Shown here: positions 4,170-45,880 of the stretch, piece after piece
Numbering within the stretch: the first letter of the stretch is position 1
Layout: each line of letters opens with the position of its first letter
Sequence record: NC_024794.1
Reading direction: 5' to 3' (one strand)
From: Escherichia phage vB_EcoM_PhAPEC2
DNA length: 64,000 nucleotides
Program-made: the position numbers and the translations under genes
The notes under the pieces: generated by a model
What the model saw: the letters and a program-made list of their open reading frames with translations, nothing else
The model's database searches: none
Told to the model about the DNA's origin: nothing

Positions 4170-4197
4170 TGTGGACTCCGTTTAATTTGATAGGACT

Positions 4198-4226
4198 ACT
4201 ATAACATAGCCCTATCTTGTTGTAAA
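4198..4226 (-). promoter_or_regulatory. Early promoter cassette (PeSL-like)
   Basis: Same architecture and near-identical sequence to 2903-2931 and 11747-11775. Confidence 0.6.
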
Positions 4227-4231
4227 CTGTT

Positions 4232-7040: not shown

Positions 7041-7268
7041 TTATTTTTTAATCAAATTGACATAAAACTTGGCGTCTTCCGGGTGCATGCCTTCACAGTA
7101 TTCTTCAACCATGAACTTCTTAACAGCTTCATAAGGACCACTCAGATTAAGCTCAGTTGTCCAGAACTTGGAATCTTGGGCTGAATCGATACGAACTTCA
7201 GGGTGACGGTTGCGAATAACTTCTTCGGTATATTCATAATCAACGACATCAATACTAACTTTAGCCAT
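7041..7268 (-). CDS. Hypothetical early protein (75 aa)
   Basis: Preceded by early promoter cassette 7299-7327 and Shine-Dalgarno AGAGGAG. Confidence 0.5.
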   Translation of the reverse strand: MAKVSIDVVDYEYTEEVIRNRHPEVRIDSAQDSKFWTTELNLSGPYEAVKKFMVEEYCEGMHPEDAKFYVNLIKK

Positions 7269-7298
7269 TTTGTTTCTCCTCTGTAGTTGATAAGTCTA

Positions 7299-7327
7299 TA
7301 GTATCACCATCCTTGGTGCTTGTACAT
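7299..7327 (-). promoter_or_regulatory. Early promoter cassette (PeSL-like)
   Basis: Minus strand: TGTACA, 17 bp, TGaTACTAT; leader duplicated at 44504-44535. Confidence 0.55.
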
Positions 7328-7334
7328 CATTATT

Positions 7335-7640
7335 TTATTTTTTCCAACTTAACAACTTGTAGTGTCCTTCATTCGTACGAGGTTTATCCCAAGAAACACT
7401 AATATATGATTCGCTGTCAATAGAAGTCGCCGGGTTTTTCTCTACCGTAAGACCTTCACTTTCCAACCATTCAATAGTATTTGCACATAAATCAGAAGAA
7501 CACCTAATCGGGAACCGGCAAGATTTTTCACCTTTAGCTGCAGTGTTATACATCTTTTCTAAAATACGCTTTTGCACGTTTTTAAAAATAGTTTCAGCAG
7601 ATTCTTCAGATTTTTTATTCAGTTCAGTATAAAGACTCAT
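7335..7640 (-). CDS. Hypothetical early protein (about 101 aa)
   Basis: Start chosen at MSLYTELN; the first ATG (7667) lies inside the 3' arm of the hairpin at 7660-7687. Confidence 0.4.
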   Translation of the reverse strand: MSLYTELNKKSEESAETIFKNVQKRILEKMYNTAAKGEKSCRFPIRCSSDLCANTIEWLESEGLTVEKNPATSIDSESYISVSWDKPRTNEGHYKLLSWKK

Positions 7641-7659
7641 AACATTCTTCTCATTAATA

Positions 7660-7687
7660 GGGCTCATAATATCTTAATCATGAGCCC
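7660..7687 (-). terminator. Hairpin between early genes that sequesters a start codon
   Basis: 8-bp stem GGGCTCAT/ATGAGCCC with 12-nt loop; the first ATG of the downstream ORF lies in the 3' arm. Confidence 0.4.
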
Positions 7688-8032: not shown

Positions 8033-8101
8033 CAGTTTTGTGAAAAAATTTTTAAAAAGTTCTGGGGAATTCTAGGGCAGGGAGAGGAAAGGCCTAGATA
8101 C

Positions 8102-8129
8102 CAAAAAGCCCTATCATTTAGATAGGGCT
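8102..8129 (-). terminator. Rho-independent terminator after ip-like gene
   Basis: AGCCCUAUC-loop-GAUAGGGCU followed by a U-run on the minus strand. Confidence 0.6.
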
Positions 8130-8135
8130 TTAAAA

Positions 8136-8699
8136 TTATTTACCTAGTTTAGTTATTATAGCTTCGGCAGCAGCTTTTAGCTTAGATGCAGTGTTAATAC
8201 GATTTTTAATTTCAGTATACGCATCGCCAAGAACATCAAGGCTATCAGAATAAACACTTACACTATTGCGTTCGCTATTTGAAATAGAACCTTTAGTTTT
8301 ACGATCAAAATCAGTGTACACGTCTTGAAGATCACGGGCTGCCTTCTTTGCATCATCCAATGCGTCAAGAGCTTTATTCAAAGCATTGACATATTTTTTA
8401 GTGTCAAACATATTCTTAGAAATTTTAACAGGTGCACGTTCAGGAGTAGCTAAGGCGGATTTAGGAACCTGCGTGCCAGATGCCAGTTTCTTAGAAATTT
8501 TGAAAAACGCTTTATTGAAACTATTTTCTTGACTCATCGTAAAAGAACTAGTATCGATGTTATACATTTCAATAGCTTTAGCTTTCCACTTAAGAAAATC
8601 GCCACGGTCTTTTGGATCCAAGTGGAAGAATACTTTAGTAAGATCTGCTTCAGATGGTAATTTTGCTGCTTCGGTTAAAAATTCGGCATAGGTTTTCAT
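8136..8699 (-). CDS. Internal-protein-like (capsid-targeted) protein, 187 aa
   Basis: N-terminus MKTYAEFLTE|A matches the IP capsid-targeting sequence and gp21 L-x-E cleavage pattern; followed by a rho-independent terminator. Confidence 0.6.
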   Translation of the reverse strand: MKTYAEFLTEAAKLPSEADLTKVFFHLDPKDRGDFLKWKAKAIEMYNIDTSSFTMSQENSFNKAFFKISKKLASGTQVPKSALATPERAPVKISKNMFDTKKYVNALNKALDALDDAKKAARDLQDVYTDFDRKTKGSISNSERNSVSVYSDSLDVLGDAYTEIKNRINTASKLKAAAEAIITKLGK

Positions 8700-8789: not shown

Positions 8790-8816
8790 AAAAAGCCCCA
8801 ACCTTTCGGAAGGGGC
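8790..8816 (-). terminator. Rho-independent terminator after ip-like gene
   Basis: GCCCC...GGGGC hairpin followed by a U-run; same element as 9332-9363. Confidence 0.6.
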
Positions 8817-8822
8817 ATTCTA

Positions 8823-9287
8823 TTATTTAATTTGTTTAGCAGACCAGATACGGTCTTTAATAAGTTTTTGGATATCTTCAACATACTCAAGGCTATGAGC
8901 GTGAGGATTATCTTTGAAGCTATGTGCTCGTGCCAGTTTCTGGCCTTCTGTTTTGATTACTAAAAGCTCTTTAAGAATTGCTTCATACTTAGAAATAATT
9001 CCTTTGGCGATATTTTTTTCTTGAGCGGCTTTAGGGTCCGCTTTTGGCACAGGTGCTTTACCTGTAGCTTTCTGGAACAATTCACCTGATGCAGCTAGGC
9101 TTTTAAAAACTCGGCTAACAGTATTAGCATTAGTAAAACCTTCGGCTTTAAAATCTCTAATAAAACGGAAACGTTCTTCATCAGAGGCGTCTTTGTAAGA
9201 ATATTTACCTGCTTGAATTGCTGCAATCGCAGCGGCTTTTACATCTGAACTAGATTGTTCAGTCAAAAATTCAGCGTATGATTTCAT
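8823..9287 (-). CDS. Internal-protein-like (capsid-targeted) protein, 154 aa
   Basis: N-terminus MKSYAEFLTE|Q; same terminator hairpin downstream as the neighbouring ip-like gene. Confidence 0.6.
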   Translation of the reverse strand: MKSYAEFLTEQSSSDVKAAAIAAIQAGKYSYKDASDEERFRFIRDFKAEGFTNANTVSRVFKSLAASGELFQKATGKAPVPKADPKAAQEKNIAKGIISKYEAILKELLVIKTEGQKLARAHSFKDNPHAHSLEYVEDIQKLIKDRIWSAKQIK

Positions 9288-9331: not shown

Positions 9332-9363
9332 CAAAAAAAAAGCCCCAACCTTTCGGAAGGGGC
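9332..9363 (-). terminator. Rho-independent terminator closing the tRNA/small-RNA transcription unit
   Basis: Same hairpin as 8790-8816 followed by nine U. Confidence 0.65.
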
Positions 9364-11540: not shown

Positions 11541-11730
11541 TTTTATCCATAACGATAGCGATTAAGCCGATTAGAAATGCTACTACCAATGAGATAGAGT
11601 TTTCAGTTGTTGTCAGTAGTCCACAAATGAATCCTACAAACATCGAAAAACTAAAAGCCATTGAAGCAATTACTACAGCAACATTACGAATCAGTTCAGC
11701 GCGTTTCATTTTATTTCTCCATTTACTCAT
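11524..11730 (-). CDS. Small membrane protein (62-68 aa)
   Basis: Two hydrophobic segments; the likely start is the second ATG (MKRAEL, GGAG Shine-Dalgarno); early promoter cassette 11747-11775 upstream. Confidence 0.45.
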   Translation of the reverse strand: MSKWRNKMKRAELIRNVAVVIASMAFSFSMFVGFICGLLTTTENSISLVVAFLIGLIAIVMDKIAKGE

Positions 11731-11746
11731 TTGTTTTGATAGGACT

Positions 11747-11775
11747 ACTATAACATAGTCCTATCGTGTTGTAAA
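11747..11775 (-). promoter_or_regulatory. Early promoter cassette (PeSL-like)
   Basis: Third copy of the TAGGACTA palindrome cassette: TTTACA, 17 bp, TATAGT. Confidence 0.6.
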
Positions 11776-11779
11776 CTAC

Positions 11780-12067
11780 TTACAGAAGAGTTTTTGCAAT
11801 AATTTTAAGCTGAGCTACAGAAATATGCTTAGCTTTAAACAGTGCGGTCTCTTCAGCCGGAGAGATAACAATAGTAGCGCCGTCTTTCTTAGCAGACCAT
11901 CCGTCCCCTAAGTAAACAGTACCTTTTACTTCTTCACCGTCAACCAGACTAATCATTGGTTTACCCTCACGTCCTTTATTTGTTTTAATAACTTCAGAAG
12001 TAAGGGATGCTTCGGTCAGAGTAGAAACGTTAGCAACAGGTGATATAAATTCTTTATAGGTTTTCAT
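11780..12067 (-). CDS. Internal protein I-like (capsid-targeted), 95 aa
   Basis: N-terminus MKTYKEFIS... with LTE at residues 17-19; same size and position as T4 ipI next to 57B; own early promoter at 12102-12130. Confidence 0.6.
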   Translation of the reverse strand: MKTYKEFISPVANVSTLTEASLTSEVIKTNKGREGKPMISLVDGEEVKGTVYLGDGWSAKKDGATIVISPAEETALFKAKHISVAQLKIIAKTLL

Positions 12068-12101
12068 TTTATTTCCTTGAGGCTGTTTATTTGATAGGAT
12101 G

Positions 12102-12130
12102 ATAGTATCACACCATCATCCTTATGTAAA
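12102..12130 (-). promoter_or_regulatory. Early promoter cassette upstream of ipI-like gene
   Basis: Minus strand: TTTACA, 17 bp, TGaTACTAT, with inverted repeat AGGATGAT/ATCATCCT. Confidence 0.55.
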
Positions 12131-12144
12131 CTGTTTTGTGAAAA

Positions 12145-23851: not shown

Positions 23852-24848
23852 TTCAAGTGTTGTCTATCGTGCGATAGTTACTTCAAAATTTAGAACTGAA
23901 AAAATGTTGAATTTCTACAATTCAATAGGTGATGGTGATAATAAAAACACCATCTTTATAACGTTTGGTCGGTCTGAACCATGGGCTGCTAATGAAAATG
24001 AGGTGGGCTTCGCCCCACCGTATCCAACAGACTCGGTTTTAGGTGTAACAGATATGTGGACTAACATGATGGGTTTAGTTAAAGTTATCCCATCTATGTT
24101 AGACTCGGTTATTCCTAGACGTGACTGGGGAGATATTCGTTATCCAGACCCTTATACATTCAAAATAAATGATATAGTCGTATGTAATACAGCCCCTTAT
24201 AATGCTACTGAAGTCGGGGCCGGATGGTTAGTATATCGTTGCGTAGATGTTCCTGATGTTGGGATGTGTTCTATTGAGTCTCTCGACAACAAAGAAGAAT
24301 GTCTTAAATTAGGTGGTAAATGGACTCCATCTGTTAGGTCTTTAACCCCTCCTGAAGGCCGTGGAGATGCTGAAGGGATTATCGAAGTTGGTGATGGATA
24401 TATATGGGAGTATCTTTATGAGATTCCACCTGATGTGTCTATAAACCGATGTACTAATGAATATATAGTCGTTCCATGGCCTGAAGAAGTTAAAGAAGAC
24501 CCTGCTCGTTGGGGATATGAAAACAATCTAACCTGGCAACAAGATGATTTTGGCCTTGTGTATAGAGTTAAAGCAAACATAATTCGTTTTAAAGCCTATT
24601 TAGACTCAGTTTATTTCCCTAATGCAGCACTGCCTGGTAATAAAGGATTTAGACAAATTTCTATTATCACAAACCCCTTGGAAGCTAAACTCCGTCCTAA
24701 TGACCCTAATATAAAGGCTGAAAAGGATTATTATGACCCTAGAGATTTACAGCGTCATTCTGGTGAAATGATTTATATGGAAAACCGTCCACCTATTATT
24801 ATGGCAATGGACCAAACCGAAGAGATCAATATTTTGTTTATGTTCTAA
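23844..24848 (+). CDS. 8: Baseplate wedge gp8
   Basis: 334 aa as in T4; order 7-8-9. Confidence 0.9.
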   Translation: MNDSSVVYRAIVTSKFRTEKMLNFYNSIGDGDNKNTIFITFGRSEPWAANENEVGFAPPYPTDSVLGVTDMWTNMMGLVKVIPSMLDSVIPRRDWGDIRYPDPYTFKINDIVVCNTAPYNATEVGAGWLVYRCVDVPDVGMCSIESLDNKEECLKLGGKWTPSVRSLTPPEGRGDAEGIIEVGDGYIWEYLYEIPPDVSINRCTNEYIVVPWPEEVKEDPARWGYENNLTWQQDDFGLVYRVKANIIRFKAYLDSVYFPNAALPGNKGFRQISIITNPLEAKLRPNDPNIKAEKDYYDPRDLQRHSGEMIYMENRPPIIMAMDQTEEINILFMF

Positions 24849-24852
24849 TTTA

Positions 24853-24870
24853 GGGAGACTTCGGTCTCCC
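24853..24870 (+). terminator. Stem-loop GGGAGAC-UUCG-GUCUCCC after gp8
   Basis: Perfect 7-bp stem with UUCG tetraloop followed by TTTCG; identical hairpin after gp23. Confidence 0.6.
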
Positions 24871-24877
24871 TTTCGTG

Positions 24878-42604: not shown

Positions 42605-44173
42605 ATGACTACTATCAAAACTAAAGCTCAGCTCGTAGACAAATGGAAAGAACTGCTGGAAGGTGAAGGCCTGCCGGAAATCGCTAATAGCAAGCAGGCT
42701 ATTATCGCTAAAATCTTCGAAAACCAGGAAAAAGATTTCGAAGTATCCCCTGAATATAAAGACGAGAAAATCGCTCAGGCATTTGGTTCTTTCTTGACCG
42801 AAGCTGAAATTGGTGGTGACCACGGTTATAACGCTCAGAACATCGCAGCAGGTCAAACCTCTGGTGCAGTAACCCAAATTGGGCCGGCAGTTATGGGTAT
42901 GGTTCGTCGTGCTATTCCTAATCTGATCGCTTTTGATATTTGTGGTGTTCAGCCTATGAACAGCCCTACCGGTCAGGTATTTGCTCTCCGTGCAGTATAT
43001 GGTAAAGACCCTATCGCTGCTGGCGCTAAAGAAGCTTTCCATCCGATGTATGCCCCAGACGCGATGTTCTCTGGACAGGGTGCTGCTAAGAAATTCCCAG
43101 CTCTGGCTGCCGACACTACTACTGTTGTAGGTGATATCTATACTCACTTCTTCCAAGAAACTGGTACTGTATATCTGCAAGCTTCTGCTGTCGTAACACT
43201 TGATTCTAGTGCGACTGATGCAGCTAAATTAGATGCCGAAGTTAAGAAACAAATGGAAGCTGGTGCACTGGTAGAAATCGCTGAAGGTATGGCTACTTCT
43301 ATCGCTGAACTCCAGGAAGGTTTCAATGGTTCTACCGATAATCCATGGAATGAAATGGGCTTCCGTATCGATAAACAAGTTATCGAAGCTAAATCTCGCC
43401 AGCTGAAAGCTGCTTACTCTATCGAATTAGCACAAGACCTCCGTGCAGTACACGGTATGGATGCTGATGCTGAACTGAGCGGTATTCTGGCTACAGAAAT
43501 TATGCTAGAAATCAACCGTGAAGTTGTTGATTGGATTAACTACTCGGCACAGGTTGGTAAATCTGGTATGACCCTGACTCCGGGTTCTAAAGCTGGCGTA
43601 TTTGACTTCCAGGACCCGATTGATATCCGTGGTGCTCGTTGGGCCGGTGAAAGCTTTAAATCTCTATTGTTCCAGATTGATAAAGAAGCAGTTGAAATTG
43701 CTCGTCAAACCGGTCGTGGTGAAGGTAACTTCATTATCGCTTCCCGTAACGTAGTTAACGTACTGGCTTCAGTTGATACTGGTATTTCTTACGCTGCACA
43801 GGGTCTGGCTTCTGGTTTTAATACCGACACTACTAAGTCTGTATTTGCAGGTGTACTTGGTGGTAAATACCGCGTATACATCGACCAGTATGCTAAACAG
43901 GATTACTTCACCGTTGGTTACAAAGGCGCTAACGAAATGGATGCAGGTATTTACTATGCTCCTTACGTTGCACTTACCCCACTGCGTGGTTCCGATCCTA
44001 AGAACTTCCAGCCGGTAATGGGCTTTAAAACTCGTTACGGTATCGGTGTTAACCCGTTTGCTGAAAGTTCCCTGCAGGCTCCAGGTGCTCGCATCCAGTC
44101 CGGTATGCCGTCTATCCTGAACAGCCTTGGTAAGAACGCTTACTTCCGCCGTGTATATGTAAAAGGCATCTAA
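42605..44173 (+). CDS. 23: Major capsid protein gp23
   Basis: 522 aa; MTTIKTKAQLVDKWKELLEGEGLPEIANSKQ... Confidence 0.97.
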   Translation: MTTIKTKAQLVDKWKELLEGEGLPEIANSKQAIIAKIFENQEKDFEVSPEYKDEKIAQAFGSFLTEAEIGGDHGYNAQNIAAGQTSGAVTQIGPAVMGMVRRAIPNLIAFDICGVQPMNSPTGQVFALRAVYGKDPIAAGAKEAFHPMYAPDAMFSGQGAAKKFPALAADTTTVVGDIYTHFFQETGTVYLQASAVVTLDSSATDAAKLDAEVKKQMEAGALVEIAEGMATSIAELQEGFNGSTDNPWNEMGFRIDKQVIEAKSRQLKAAYSIELAQDLRAVHGMDADAELSGILATEIMLEINREVVDWINYSAQVGKSGMTLTPGSKAGVFDFQDPIDIRGARWAGESFKSLLFQIDKEAVEIARQTGRGEGNFIIASRNVVNVLASVDTGISYAAQGLASGFNTDTTKSVFAGVLGGKYRVYIDQYAKQDYFTVGYKGANEMDAGIYYAPYVALTPLRGSDPKNFQPVMGFKTRYGIGVNPFAESSLQAPGARIQSGMPSILNSLGKNAYFRRVYVKGI

Positions 44174-44197
44174 TCTTAATTGATTAAATCTTATTTT

Positions 44198-44215
44198 GGG
44201 AGACTTCGGTCTCCC
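44198..44215 (+). terminator. Stem-loop GGGAGAC-UUCG-GUCUCCC after gp23
   Basis: Same 18-nt hairpin as after gp8, followed by ATTTTT. Confidence 0.65.
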
Positions 44216-44225
44216 ATTTTTGGTT

Positions 44226-44495
44226 TTATTTCTGTGCAATTTCGATGTAAGTTTTCAAAATATTTTGCCAATTAGGCATACCTTCTTGGACATATGCTGG
44301 AGAACCGTCTTTGTTTTTGAATGATGCAAGTTTATCAGTGGCCCAATAACCTTTAGCTCGAGCTTCAGAATCAACTTTCATCCATACTTTGTTGAAGGCA
44401 TTACCATTAACTTTTGCACCATATTTTTCTACTAACTTAACTGCTTCAGCTTCCAGAACTTTTAAAGTATCTCGTAAGAAACGTGCTTTAGTCAT
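44226..44495 (-). CDS. Hypothetical early protein (89 aa) inserted between gp23 and gp24
   Basis: Minus-strand ORF with GAGGAG Shine-Dalgarno and its own early promoter cassette (44526-44554); T4 carries segD at this position. Confidence 0.55.
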   Translation of the reverse strand: MTKARFLRDTLKVLEAEAVKLVEKYGAKVNGNAFNKVWMKVDSEARAKGYWATDKLASFKNKDGSPAYVQEGMPNWQNILKTYIEIAQK

Positions 44496-44525
44496 TTTGT
44501 TTACTCCTCTGTAGTTGATAAGTCT

Positions 44526-44554
44526 ATAGTATCACATACCAAATACGTTGTAAA
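44526..44554 (-). promoter_or_regulatory. Early promoter cassette (sigma70-like, PeSL-like)
   Basis: Minus strand: TTTACA, 17 bp, TGnTACTAT; 32 nt (44504-44535) identical to 7277-7308. Confidence 0.6.
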
Positions 44555-44561
44555 CAATCTT

Positions 44562-44569
44562 TATAAATA
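44562..44569 (+). promoter_or_regulatory. Late promoter (TATAAATA) for gp24
   Basis: Consensus 28 nt upstream of the gp24 ATG. Confidence 0.6.
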
Positions 44570-44596: not shown

Positions 44597-45880
44597 ATGA
44601 GTAAAATCCAAAAATTATTGCGTGAATCTACAACGTCTACTAGCAACTCAATTGGTCGCCCAAATCTCGTTGCTTTGACTCGCGCTACGACTAAATTAAT
44701 ATATTCTGACATTGTAGCAACACAAAGAACTAATCAACCTGTTGCTGCTTTTTATGGTATCAAATATCTTAACCCAGATAACGAATTCACATTTAAAACT
44801 GGTGCTACTTATGCGGGTGAAGTTGGATATGTAGACCGAGAAAAAATTACTGAGCTCACAGAAGAATCAAAAGTCACACTAAATAAAGGCGATTTTTTCA
44901 AATATAATAATATCGTCTATAAAGTGTTAGAAGATACACCATTTGCAGATATTCAAGAAAGTGATCTAGAATTAGCTCTTCAGATTGCAGTCGTTCATTT
45001 AAAGGTACGGTTATTTTCAGATGCAGCGGTAACAAGCAAATTTGAAAGCTCTGGTAGCGAAATTTCTGATGCAAGATTCCAGATTAATAAATGGCAAACT
45101 TCAGTCAAATCTCGTAAACTTAAAACCGGCCTCACGGTTGAATTAGCGCAAGATTTGGAAGCGAATGGATTTGATGCCCCTAACTTTTTAGAAGATTTGC
45201 TTGCTACTGAAATGGCTGATGAAATTAATAAAGATATTCTTCAGTCTTTAATTACTGTATCGAAACGTTATAAAGTTACTGGAATTACTGACACTGGATT
45301 TATTGACTTGAGCTATGCATCCGCTCCAGAAGCAGGTCGTTCATTATATCGAATGGTGTGTGAAATGGTATCACACATTCAAAAAGAGACAACTTATACT
45401 GCGACGTTTTGTGTAGCCTCAGCTCGTGCAGCTGCTATTCTTGCTGCTTCTGGTTGGTTAAAACATAAGCCAGAAGATGACAAGTATCTTTCACAAAATG
45501 CTTATGGATTCTTGGCAAATGGATTACCTCTTTACTGCGATACTAACAGTCCGTTAGATTATGTTATTGTGGGTGTTGTAGAAAATATCGGCGAAAAAGA
45601 AATTGTAGGGTCCATCTTTTATGCTCCATACACTGAAGGAGTAGATTTAGATGACCCGGAACATGTTGGTGCTTTTAAAGTTGTAGTTGATCCAGAAAGC
45701 TTGCAACCGTCTATCGGATTACTGGTTAGATATGCTTTATCAGCAAATCCTTACACAGTAGCAAAAGACGAAAAAGAAGCGAGAATAATTGATGGCGGGG
45801 ACATGGATAAAATGGCAGGACGTTCAGACTTGTCTGTTTTACTCGGTGTTAAATTGCCTAAAATTATTATAGATGAATAA
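44597..45880 (+). CDS. 24: Capsid vertex protein gp24
   Basis: 427 aa as in T4; gp23-like fold. Confidence 0.95.
   Translation: MSKIQKLLRESTTSTSNSIGRPNLVALTRATTKLIYSDIVATQRTNQPVAAFYGIKYLNPDNEFTFKTGATYAGEVGYVDREKITELTEESKVTLNKGDFFKYNNIVYKVLEDTPFADIQESDLELALQIAVVHLKVRLFSDAAVTSKFESSGSEISDARFQINKWQTSVKSRKLKTGLTVELAQDLEANGFDAPNFLEDLLATEMADEINKDILQSLITVSKRYKVTGITDTGFIDLSYASAPEAGRSLYRMVCEMVSHIQKETTYTATFCVASARAAAILAASGWLKHKPEDDKYLSQNAYGFLANGLPLYCDTNSPLDYVIVGVVENIGEKEIVGSIFYAPYTEGVDLDDPEHVGAFKVVVDPESLQPSIGLLVRYALSANPYTVAKDEKEARIIDGGDMDKMAGRSDLSVLLGVKLPKIIIDE

Follow-up and report, generated by a model that had tools for sequence, protein, structure and literature searches.

A 32-nt promoter-leader repeat at two distant loci of phage PhAPEC2 is probably a recombinationally copied joint between early cassettes

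The early cassettes of frd.3 and of a small open reading frame (ORF) between genes 23 and 24 of Escherichia phage vB_EcoM_PhAPEC2 share an exact 32-nt segment. This repeat probably represents the 3' two-thirds of two related sigma-70 early cassettes, which would owe their identity to recombinational copying and have been reused as a joint for gene shuffling. Within the window, the 64,000-nt stretch of NC_024794.1 analyzed here, the 32-mer CTCCTCTGTAGTTGATAAGTCTATAGTATCAC occurs twice on the plus strand, at positions 7276-7307 (copy A) and 44504-44535 (copy B). Since the two neighboring ORFs are encoded on the minus strand, the element reads in their direction as GTGATACTATAGACTTATCAACTACAGAGGAG, the reverse complement of the 32-mer. 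A preceding sequence-only reading of this DNA had reported the exact 32-nt duplicate, and both copies were located; its coordinates for copy B are right, while those for copy A (7277-7308) are one base too high.

The match is the longest exact repeat in the 64-kb window, direct and inverted repeats both counted. The next-longest, of 27, 26 and 24 nt, are likewise promoter or terminator elements of the early region. No match to the 32-mer, with up to three mismatches allowed, was found in 100 dinucleotide-preserving shuffles. Similarity extends beyond the repeat toward the genes. Read on the minus strand, the 32-mer is followed by a one-nucleotide indel (a T present in copy B only), the stretch AAACAAAATG, which is identical at both loci and includes the start codon, a G/A mismatch, and CTAAAG. 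On the A side the continuation is AAACAAAATG, G and CTAAAG (7259..7275), spanning the start codon and codons 2-3; on the B side it is T, AAACAAAATG, A and CTAAAG (44486..44503). Pairwise alignment of 7259-7307 with 44486-44535 gives 48 identical columns out of 50. Upstream of the 32-mer, spacer and -35 box differ between the two loci. Besides the two exact copies, the window holds three diverged ones; over 40 nt, the identity of these other family members is only 65-70%.

The window belongs to a Mosigvirus, an RB69-like T-even phage, and both regions are 96-99% identical to RB69-like phages. The two ORFs named by the sequence-only reading are both present on the minus strand. One, at 7041..7268, is frd.3 (75 aa; Pfam Phage_FRD3, 3.2e-38; RB69 annotation), and the other, at 44226..44495, encodes 89 aa (phrog_6003) and occupies the slot between gene 23 (42605-44173) and gene 24 (44597-45880). 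Both are of unknown function, and function searches with the two proteins returned Pfam Phage_FRD3 and function-unknown PHROGs only, with no relatives in the PDB. Paralogy was considered and ruled out; the proteins are unrelated (BLASTP E = 5.4). In the 23-24 slot, a T4-type late-promoter motif of gene 24, TATAAATA (44562..44569, plus strand; T4 consensus as quoted in PMC1524935), stands back to back with the promoter of the 89-aa ORF. A GC-rich hairpin with a T-run, detected by terminator scan at 44197..44216 on the plus strand as the gene 23 terminator, adjoins the 3' end of the same ORF. The terminator hairpin sequence GGGAGACTTCGGTCTCCC (44189-44218) has a 90% identical copy 19 kb away, at 24844-24873.

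Both copies are embedded in complete early-promoter cassettes, all elements of which lie on the minus strand. At locus A, the extended -10 element TGaTACTAT (7298..7306) is preceded, 17 nt upstream and outside the repeat, by the -35 box TGTACA (7321..7326). The predicted start lies at about 7291, the A of TTATCAA, and the Shine-Dalgarno (SD) sequence GAGGAG of frd.3, which contains GGAG, at 7276..7281, ahead of the start codon at 7268. At locus B the corresponding elements are the -35 box TTTACA (44549..44554, with GTTTAC at 44555-44550), a 17-nt spacer, the extended -10 TGaTACTAT (44526..44534), a predicted start at about 44519, the SD sequence GAGGAG (44504-44509) and the start codon at 44495. 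The distance from GAGGAG to ATG is 6-7 nt at both loci, and the leaders are 23 nt (A) and 24 nt (B) long. A consensus promoter scan detected promoter B (TTTACA-17-TACTAT with TG), while promoter A fell one match below the scan threshold. The sequence-only reading had assigned the -10 box, leader and SD to the 32-mer, an assignment that agrees with the sequence at both loci and with the scan at B. The features given for T4-type early promoters in PMC1524935 (GTTTAC-like -35, TAnnnT -10, GT-rich 5' of -12, A-rich UP) are present at A and B. AT-rich stretches upstream of the -35 boxes, GGAAAAAATAAAATAATGA at A and ATAGATTATTTATAAAGAT at B, were judged by eye and carry no background comparison.

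Nolan et al. 2006 (PMC1524935, Additional file 3) list the orthologous sites in RB69, Pe:72567 (score 33) for A and Pe:109605 (score 29.9) for B, as early promoters predicted by HMM, so the promoter call itself is prior knowledge. Our start for promoter A is the 3' end of Pe:72567 mapped onto the RB69 locus, and that for promoter B derives from its RB69 equivalent, Pe:109605. The same study predicts a separate early promoter, Pe:72354, for RB69 frd.3; Pe:72567 drives ORF145c in RB69, whereas promoter A drives frd.3 here. A term search of the main text of PMC1524935 found no mention of the 29-47 nt common to Pe:72567 and Pe:109605, nor of junctions. Both cassettes are predicted immediate-early promoters, in start site as in early timing, and the 23-24 ORF and frd.3 are probably immediate-early genes.

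Comparison with related phages accounts for the length of the exact repeat. In RB69, ST2 and phi25-307, an extra 54-aa gene, ORF145c, separates the cassette from frd.3, which lies behind a promoter of its own (TTTACA-17-TATAGT); ORF145c is missing from the PhAPEC2 window. In RB69-type genomes the ORF145c leader equals the locus-B leader over 47 nt, into codon 3. These 47 nt comprise the 32-mer and the 15-nt extension TAAACAAAATGACTA, which lies at 44489-44503 (minus strand) in the window; the 47 nt are matched at 100% in H121-H126. This 47-nt form, with ORF145c downstream, is the majority state among Mosigvirus records. Because PhAPEC2 lacks ORF145c and its cassette is fused to frd.3 at the SD sequence, the exact repeat is trimmed to 32 nt. 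Joining the frd.3 leader of ST2 (...TCAAGAGGAGAAACAAAATGG) to the ORF145c leader (...ACAGAGGAG|T...) within AGAGGAG gives the window sequence exactly. The comparison shows the 32-nt length to be secondary, the repeat apparently being trimmed by a cassette-frd.3 join inside AGAGGAG. Among a spread sample of 40 records searched with junction-spanning queries, frd.3 lies directly behind a cassette in about 8, of which only two (NHEP36 and CCU7) match at 97% or more; these are rough counts, since BLAST joins both pieces.

The same module has been joined differently elsewhere. ORF145c stands behind the same -35 box, spacer and core in most Mosigviruses and in many Tequatroviruses (T2, RB3 and others; 98% aa), although in T2 the leader is another one. 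In JS98/VR5-like genomes (Dhakavirus and Gaprivervirus types) and in Jbel, a homologous core and a CTACA... leader stand immediately ahead of frd.3. The direct arrangement seen in PhAPEC2 may be either ancestral or the product of an ORF145c deletion. In phiC120, G53 and LH01, the join between this promoter and frd.3 falls at the end of TATCAA or close to it, with a different leader in each, and the right-hand end of the ORF145c module coincides in T2 and RB69 with the -35 box of the next promoter. The junctions seen in relatives (ST2, RB69, phiC120, G53, LH01, ATK47 and T2) fall at AGAGGAG, the end of TATCAA and -35 boxes; at least four independent junction positions lie within one module of about 60 nt. 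The sequence-only reading had proposed a recent, cassette-mediated mobilization of promoter plus leader, with locus B as an insertion. Recombinational copying is upheld by the unrelated proteins and by the junctions at landmarks, and it is the words "recent" and "insertion" that find no support.

ORF145c (RB69, L001 2316-2480) is 96-98% identical at the amino acid level between Mosigvirus and many Tequatroviruses (T2, RB3, PST-like phages and others). It precedes frd.3 in RB69 and e.6 in T2, and its near-identity in different contexts suggests recent exchange between genera. Just upstream of cassette A, a 110-aa ORF (7335-7667, minus strand) corresponds to a 167-aa protein of phiC120 and JK45, of which it is an allele shortened at the C-terminus. 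The two are 91% identical over about 90 residues and diverge just before the cassette, which makes this another indel abutting the module. In LH01 and G53, 504-nt ORFs are annotated at this position; the correspondence is one of position, the sequence comparison being that with phiC120 and JK45.

We propose that the cassettes would serve host-RNA-polymerase immediate-early transcription and efficient translation of small accessory genes (frd.3 and the 89-aa ORF), and that a patch of one would have been copied into the other through the phage's own homologous recombination. With GGAG in an unstructured, A-rich leader, both mRNAs are also plausible RegB targets. Within the initial 22 nt of the repeat, which run from the extended -10 to +5, lies a 17-nt core (-10/+5), TAYTATAGACYTATCAA, that is common to many T-even early promoters and is the likely seed of such copying. 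In most Mosigviruses the copied patch would be 47 nt long, reaching codon 3 (ATGACTA) of ORF145c at A and of the 89-aa ORF at B. ORF145c of T2 also starts ATGACTA, while the homologues that the 89-aa ORF has in other genera begin with ATGAAC; this weakly suggests copying from A to B in the Mosigvirus lineage, the direction depending on this one character in homologues only about 31-38% identical.

In several respects the cassettes resemble PeSLs, elements composed of an AT-rich region, -35 and -10 boxes, a stem-loop, an SD sequence and an ATG (Arbiol et al. 2010, PMC2839356; Comeau et al. 2014, PMC4122927). Both are composite intergenic AT-rich stretches with a sigma-70-type -35/N17/-10 promoter and the SD and ATG of a small downstream gene, and both are repeated in the genome beside indels or replacements between close relatives. 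The crossovers inferred here lie between -10 and SD or ATG, as do those mapped for PeSLs, and the promoter fits the T4/PST PeSL consensus TTTACW-N17-TAYWAT (PMC2839356, PMC4122927). PeSLs are defined in part by a stem-loop (terminator/attenuator) next to or overlapping the promoter, and in this the two copies depart from them, as no credible stem-loop was found at A or B. As DNA, the copies fold no better than shuffles (z = -1.27 for A and -0.66 for B), the best fold at A is merely a 5-bp CACCA/TGGTG hairpin, and the predicted structure of the shared leader has 0 kcal/mol, that is, the leader is unstructured. An 8-bp complementarity at locus B between the -35 region (TTGTTTAC) and the leader (GTAAACAA) appears in the minimum free energy fold and was rejected as not significant. 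Copy B also differs from typical PeSLs in lying within a structural-gene block (23-24) and not in a hyperplastic region. Demonstrated promoter/terminator activity and mini-circle formation count among the marks of PeSLs, whereas the PhAPEC2 cassettes are predictions from sequence.

Mosigvirus and RB69 are not among the phages analyzed for PeSLs in PMC2839356 and PMC4122927. The present cassettes may be described as PeSL-like early promoter-leaders without a stem-loop, in a genus without catalogued PeSLs, and like the published elements they probably act as portable joints for modular gene shuffling. If so, a PeSL-like joint can work without a stem-loop, which weakly supports plain short homology over a hairpin-specific factor. 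The element is of an already-described T4-type kind, and the repeat leaves current understanding unchanged. It adds a sequence example from the RB69 group of how T4-type phages reuse early-promoter and ribosome-binding motifs as swap joints for small genes, with one copy of the cassette in an otherwise conserved head-gene block.

The early region of the window holds a second early-promoter family, GTTTACA-N-TATAGT, with members on the minus strand at 2886-2933, 4181-4228, 11730-11777 and 12085-12132. Compared over 48 nt, they show 67-92% identity with the reference copy, two of them have 26 nt exactly in common, and a 10-bp inverted repeat (GATAGGACTA...TAGTCCTATC) overlaps the -10 box. The members look like typical PeSLs or like the inverted-repeat early promoters of T-even internal-protein loci; the own frd.3 promoter of RB69 is a half copy of this type. 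A minus-strand ORF at 11780-12067 (95 aa, starting MKTYKEFI...) encodes what we take to be a protein like the T4 internal protein IPI, which would place copy A next to the polymorphic internal-protein locus. Two further minus-strand ORFs, 8136-8699 and 8823-9287, both fall into phrog_2280 and are paralogues; they begin with MKTYAEFLTE and MKSYAEFLTE, N-termini that presumably resemble the capsid-targeting leader of T4 internal proteins. A 27-nt terminator-like hairpin, AAAAAGCCCCAACCTTTCGGAAGGGGC, occurs twice exactly, at 8790-8816 and 9337-9363, flanking ORF 8823-9287. The minus-strand stretch 8042-8164, which takes in a terminator-like hairpin (8105-8131), gives a sub-threshold Rfam match to the rimP leader (29.8 bits, E = 0.017; gathering score 47), probably a chance hit.

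Early-promoter repeats of about 70 bp with an overlapping inverted repeat, flanking the internal-protein genes of T-even phages, are attributed in PMC4122927 to Repoila et al. 1994. Like the present cassettes, they are repeated early-promoter modules for which a role in small-gene shuffling has been proposed. A locus of this type lies near copy A in the window, with the IPI-like ORF and the 10-bp inverted-repeat promoters beginning at 2886, 4181, 11730 and 12085. Copies A and B belong to a separate sub-family, D1, which lacks the inverted repeat.

Of the other explanations for the identity, the one that survives best, although unlikely, is that the leader is a common cis-regulatory site, such as a strong RegB/S1 site or a repressor target, that co-regulates ORF145c/frd.3 and the 23-24 ORF and was copied and kept by selection. 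GGAG is the core of RegB cleavage sites, and strong sites follow the consensus GG*AGRAYARAA (Uzan and Miller 2010, PMC3014915). At both predicted early initiation regions GGAG is unpaired, within GAGGAG of the unstructured, A-rich leader, a setting like that of the RegB-sensitive early regions of T4. The PhAPEC2 leaders, known from their sequence, match the consensus of strong T4 RegB sites only partially, with 5/7 positions of the extended part at A (GGAGAAACAAA) and 4/7 at B (GGAGTAAACAA). RB69, in which the ORF of the 23-24 slot is broken and its cassette carries three changes, fits a selected site. RB69 is reported to have a divergent regB (PMC3014915). Against such a site, frd.3 tolerates at least five different leaders in other Mosigviruses, and a search for known RNA families (Rfam) returned nothing relevant, only sub-threshold chance hits. 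Shared regulation would moreover add to a recombinational origin and not replace it. More specifically, the 32-47-nt leader would be a shared RNA or DNA operator or tuned RegB/S1 site under selection, linking the expression of the 23-24 ORF to that of ORF145c/frd.3, a proposal that is decidedly doubtful; if true, it would account for an identity kept up in more than 100 Mosigvirus genomes, against the free drift of frd.3 leaders in other haplotypes.

Counted at 28 or more exact nt, the cassette has 227 occurrences in about 143 records, every one of them Mosigvirus-like and some with a single occurrence. The pair is not specific to PhAPEC2; it dates to the genus Mosigvirus or has swept through it, a genus-wide presence that speaks against the "recent" mobilization proposed earlier. 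The exact 32-mer has no match in IMG/VR, and the sole Mosigvirus-like locus identified among the fetched IMG/VR stretches carries a SNP in the SD sequence. The core TAYTATAGACYTATCAA, by comparison, is present in 12 of the 15 fetched loci, T2 and JS98 included, and in at least 120 IMG/VR stretches; a JS98-like genome has at least 7-10 copies of it. In T4-like genomes it usually lies between a GTTTAC-type -35 box and an SD with ATG, and the promoters that share it have at least ten different leaders. The sequence-only reading had weighed whether the shared segment is part of a longer block conserved in all T4-like genomes: the core does recur in many early promoters of other T-even genera, but the full 32-mer is specific to Mosigvirus.

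Ongoing gene conversion between the two loci, 37 kb apart, could in principle maintain identity in every genome by concerted evolution. That the copies show no difference at all in the 32 nt of PhAPEC2, or in the 47 nt of many genomes, would suit such a process, as would the short homology that suffices for T4-type recombination (PMC2839356). It is nevertheless highly improbable, for the two copies are seen to go separate ways. RB69 combines a canonical A with a B bearing three substitutions, LH01 a canonical 32-mer at B with a -10 of TAGTAT and a different leader at A. G53 and phiC120 carry other leaders at A, LNA2 has a private SNP in B (the B copy alone being compared), and some records have a single place. 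No co-variation of A and B within genomes was seen (n = 6: RB69, LH01, G53, phiC120, LNA2 and JK45).

Another reading would have the 89-aa ORF enter the 23-24 gap recently as a mobile promoter plus ORF, for instance by integration of a PeSL mini-circle. In its favor, the slot is variable (segD in T4; a different allele and segD in JK45 and ATK47), and the hyperplastic early region has a cassette identical to that of the slot. Dhakavirus JS98 and Gaprivervirus VR7 nevertheless have homologues of the 89-aa ORF in this very slot, 31-38% identical at the amino acid level and each with its own early promoter. Their position marks the ORF, on comparative grounds, as an old occupant of the slot and not the new intergenic insertion that the sequence-only reading had supposed. 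All sampled Mosigviruses that carry the ORF have it at the same position with at least 97% identity, and what locus B has in common with locus A is confined to a patch reaching from about -15 to codon 3, with -35 box, spacer and ORF excluded. A recent arrival is accordingly very unlikely.

The sequence-only reading had suggested checking whether related phages without the ORF are also without the cassette. T4 lacks both the 89-aa ORF and the cassette and has segD in the 23-24 slot under a different early promoter. ATK47 has a distant allele of the ORF and yet retains the 5' 21 nt of the cassette. From gene 24 to TATCAA, ATK47 is 96-100% identical to the window; beyond TATCAA, it is 98-100% identical to JK45 (100% in nearly all 50-nt blocks), whose leader is of the Dhakavirus type and which carries segD and an allele of the 23-24 ORF with 31% identity. 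ATK47 and JK45 carry this Dhakavirus-type allele in an RB69-like backbone. Despite the 98-100% identity, segD is annotated beside the 23-24 ORF in JK45 while no feature is annotated there in ATK47. The label "homing endonuclease" on gp24 of ATK47 and the filing of JK45 under Tequatrovirus both look like annotation slips. In the RB69 reference (L002 1792-2032), the 89-aa ORF is split as ORF188c/189c and its cassette has three substitutions in the 32-mer, a state to be put down to mistakes in the old sequence or else to the decay of a gene that is dispensable.

Independent convergence on an optimal promoter and ribosome-binding site, to which the 17-nt core lends something in being a consensus widespread in several genera, so that the repeat is partly constrained by function, is scarcely credible, as the 11 nt past the core (CTACAGAGGAG) and the next 15 nt in RB69-type genomes lie outside any consensus, promoters sharing the core differ in their leaders, and the other family members in the window have diverged.

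Many early promoters of JS98-like genomes (IMG/VR L016-L135, e.g. L022, L024, L042, L046, L089 and L092) have a spacer complementary to the leader and SD. Across 92 related promoters sharing the core, the spacer is complementary over 9-14 nt to its own leader including the SD, with compensatory variants, in 18, against 3 of 92 mismatched controls; this complementarity constitutes the PeSL stem-loop. At A and at B, the longest spacer/leader complementarity is 3 nt each. In paralogous promoters of JS98-like genomes, the arms differ and yet stay complementary (CTACAGGAGAT, CTAATGGAGATG, CTACTGGAGAA and AACTAAAGGAG). Transcripts initiating within such a hairpin would have a free SD, and in read-through transcripts it would be paired.
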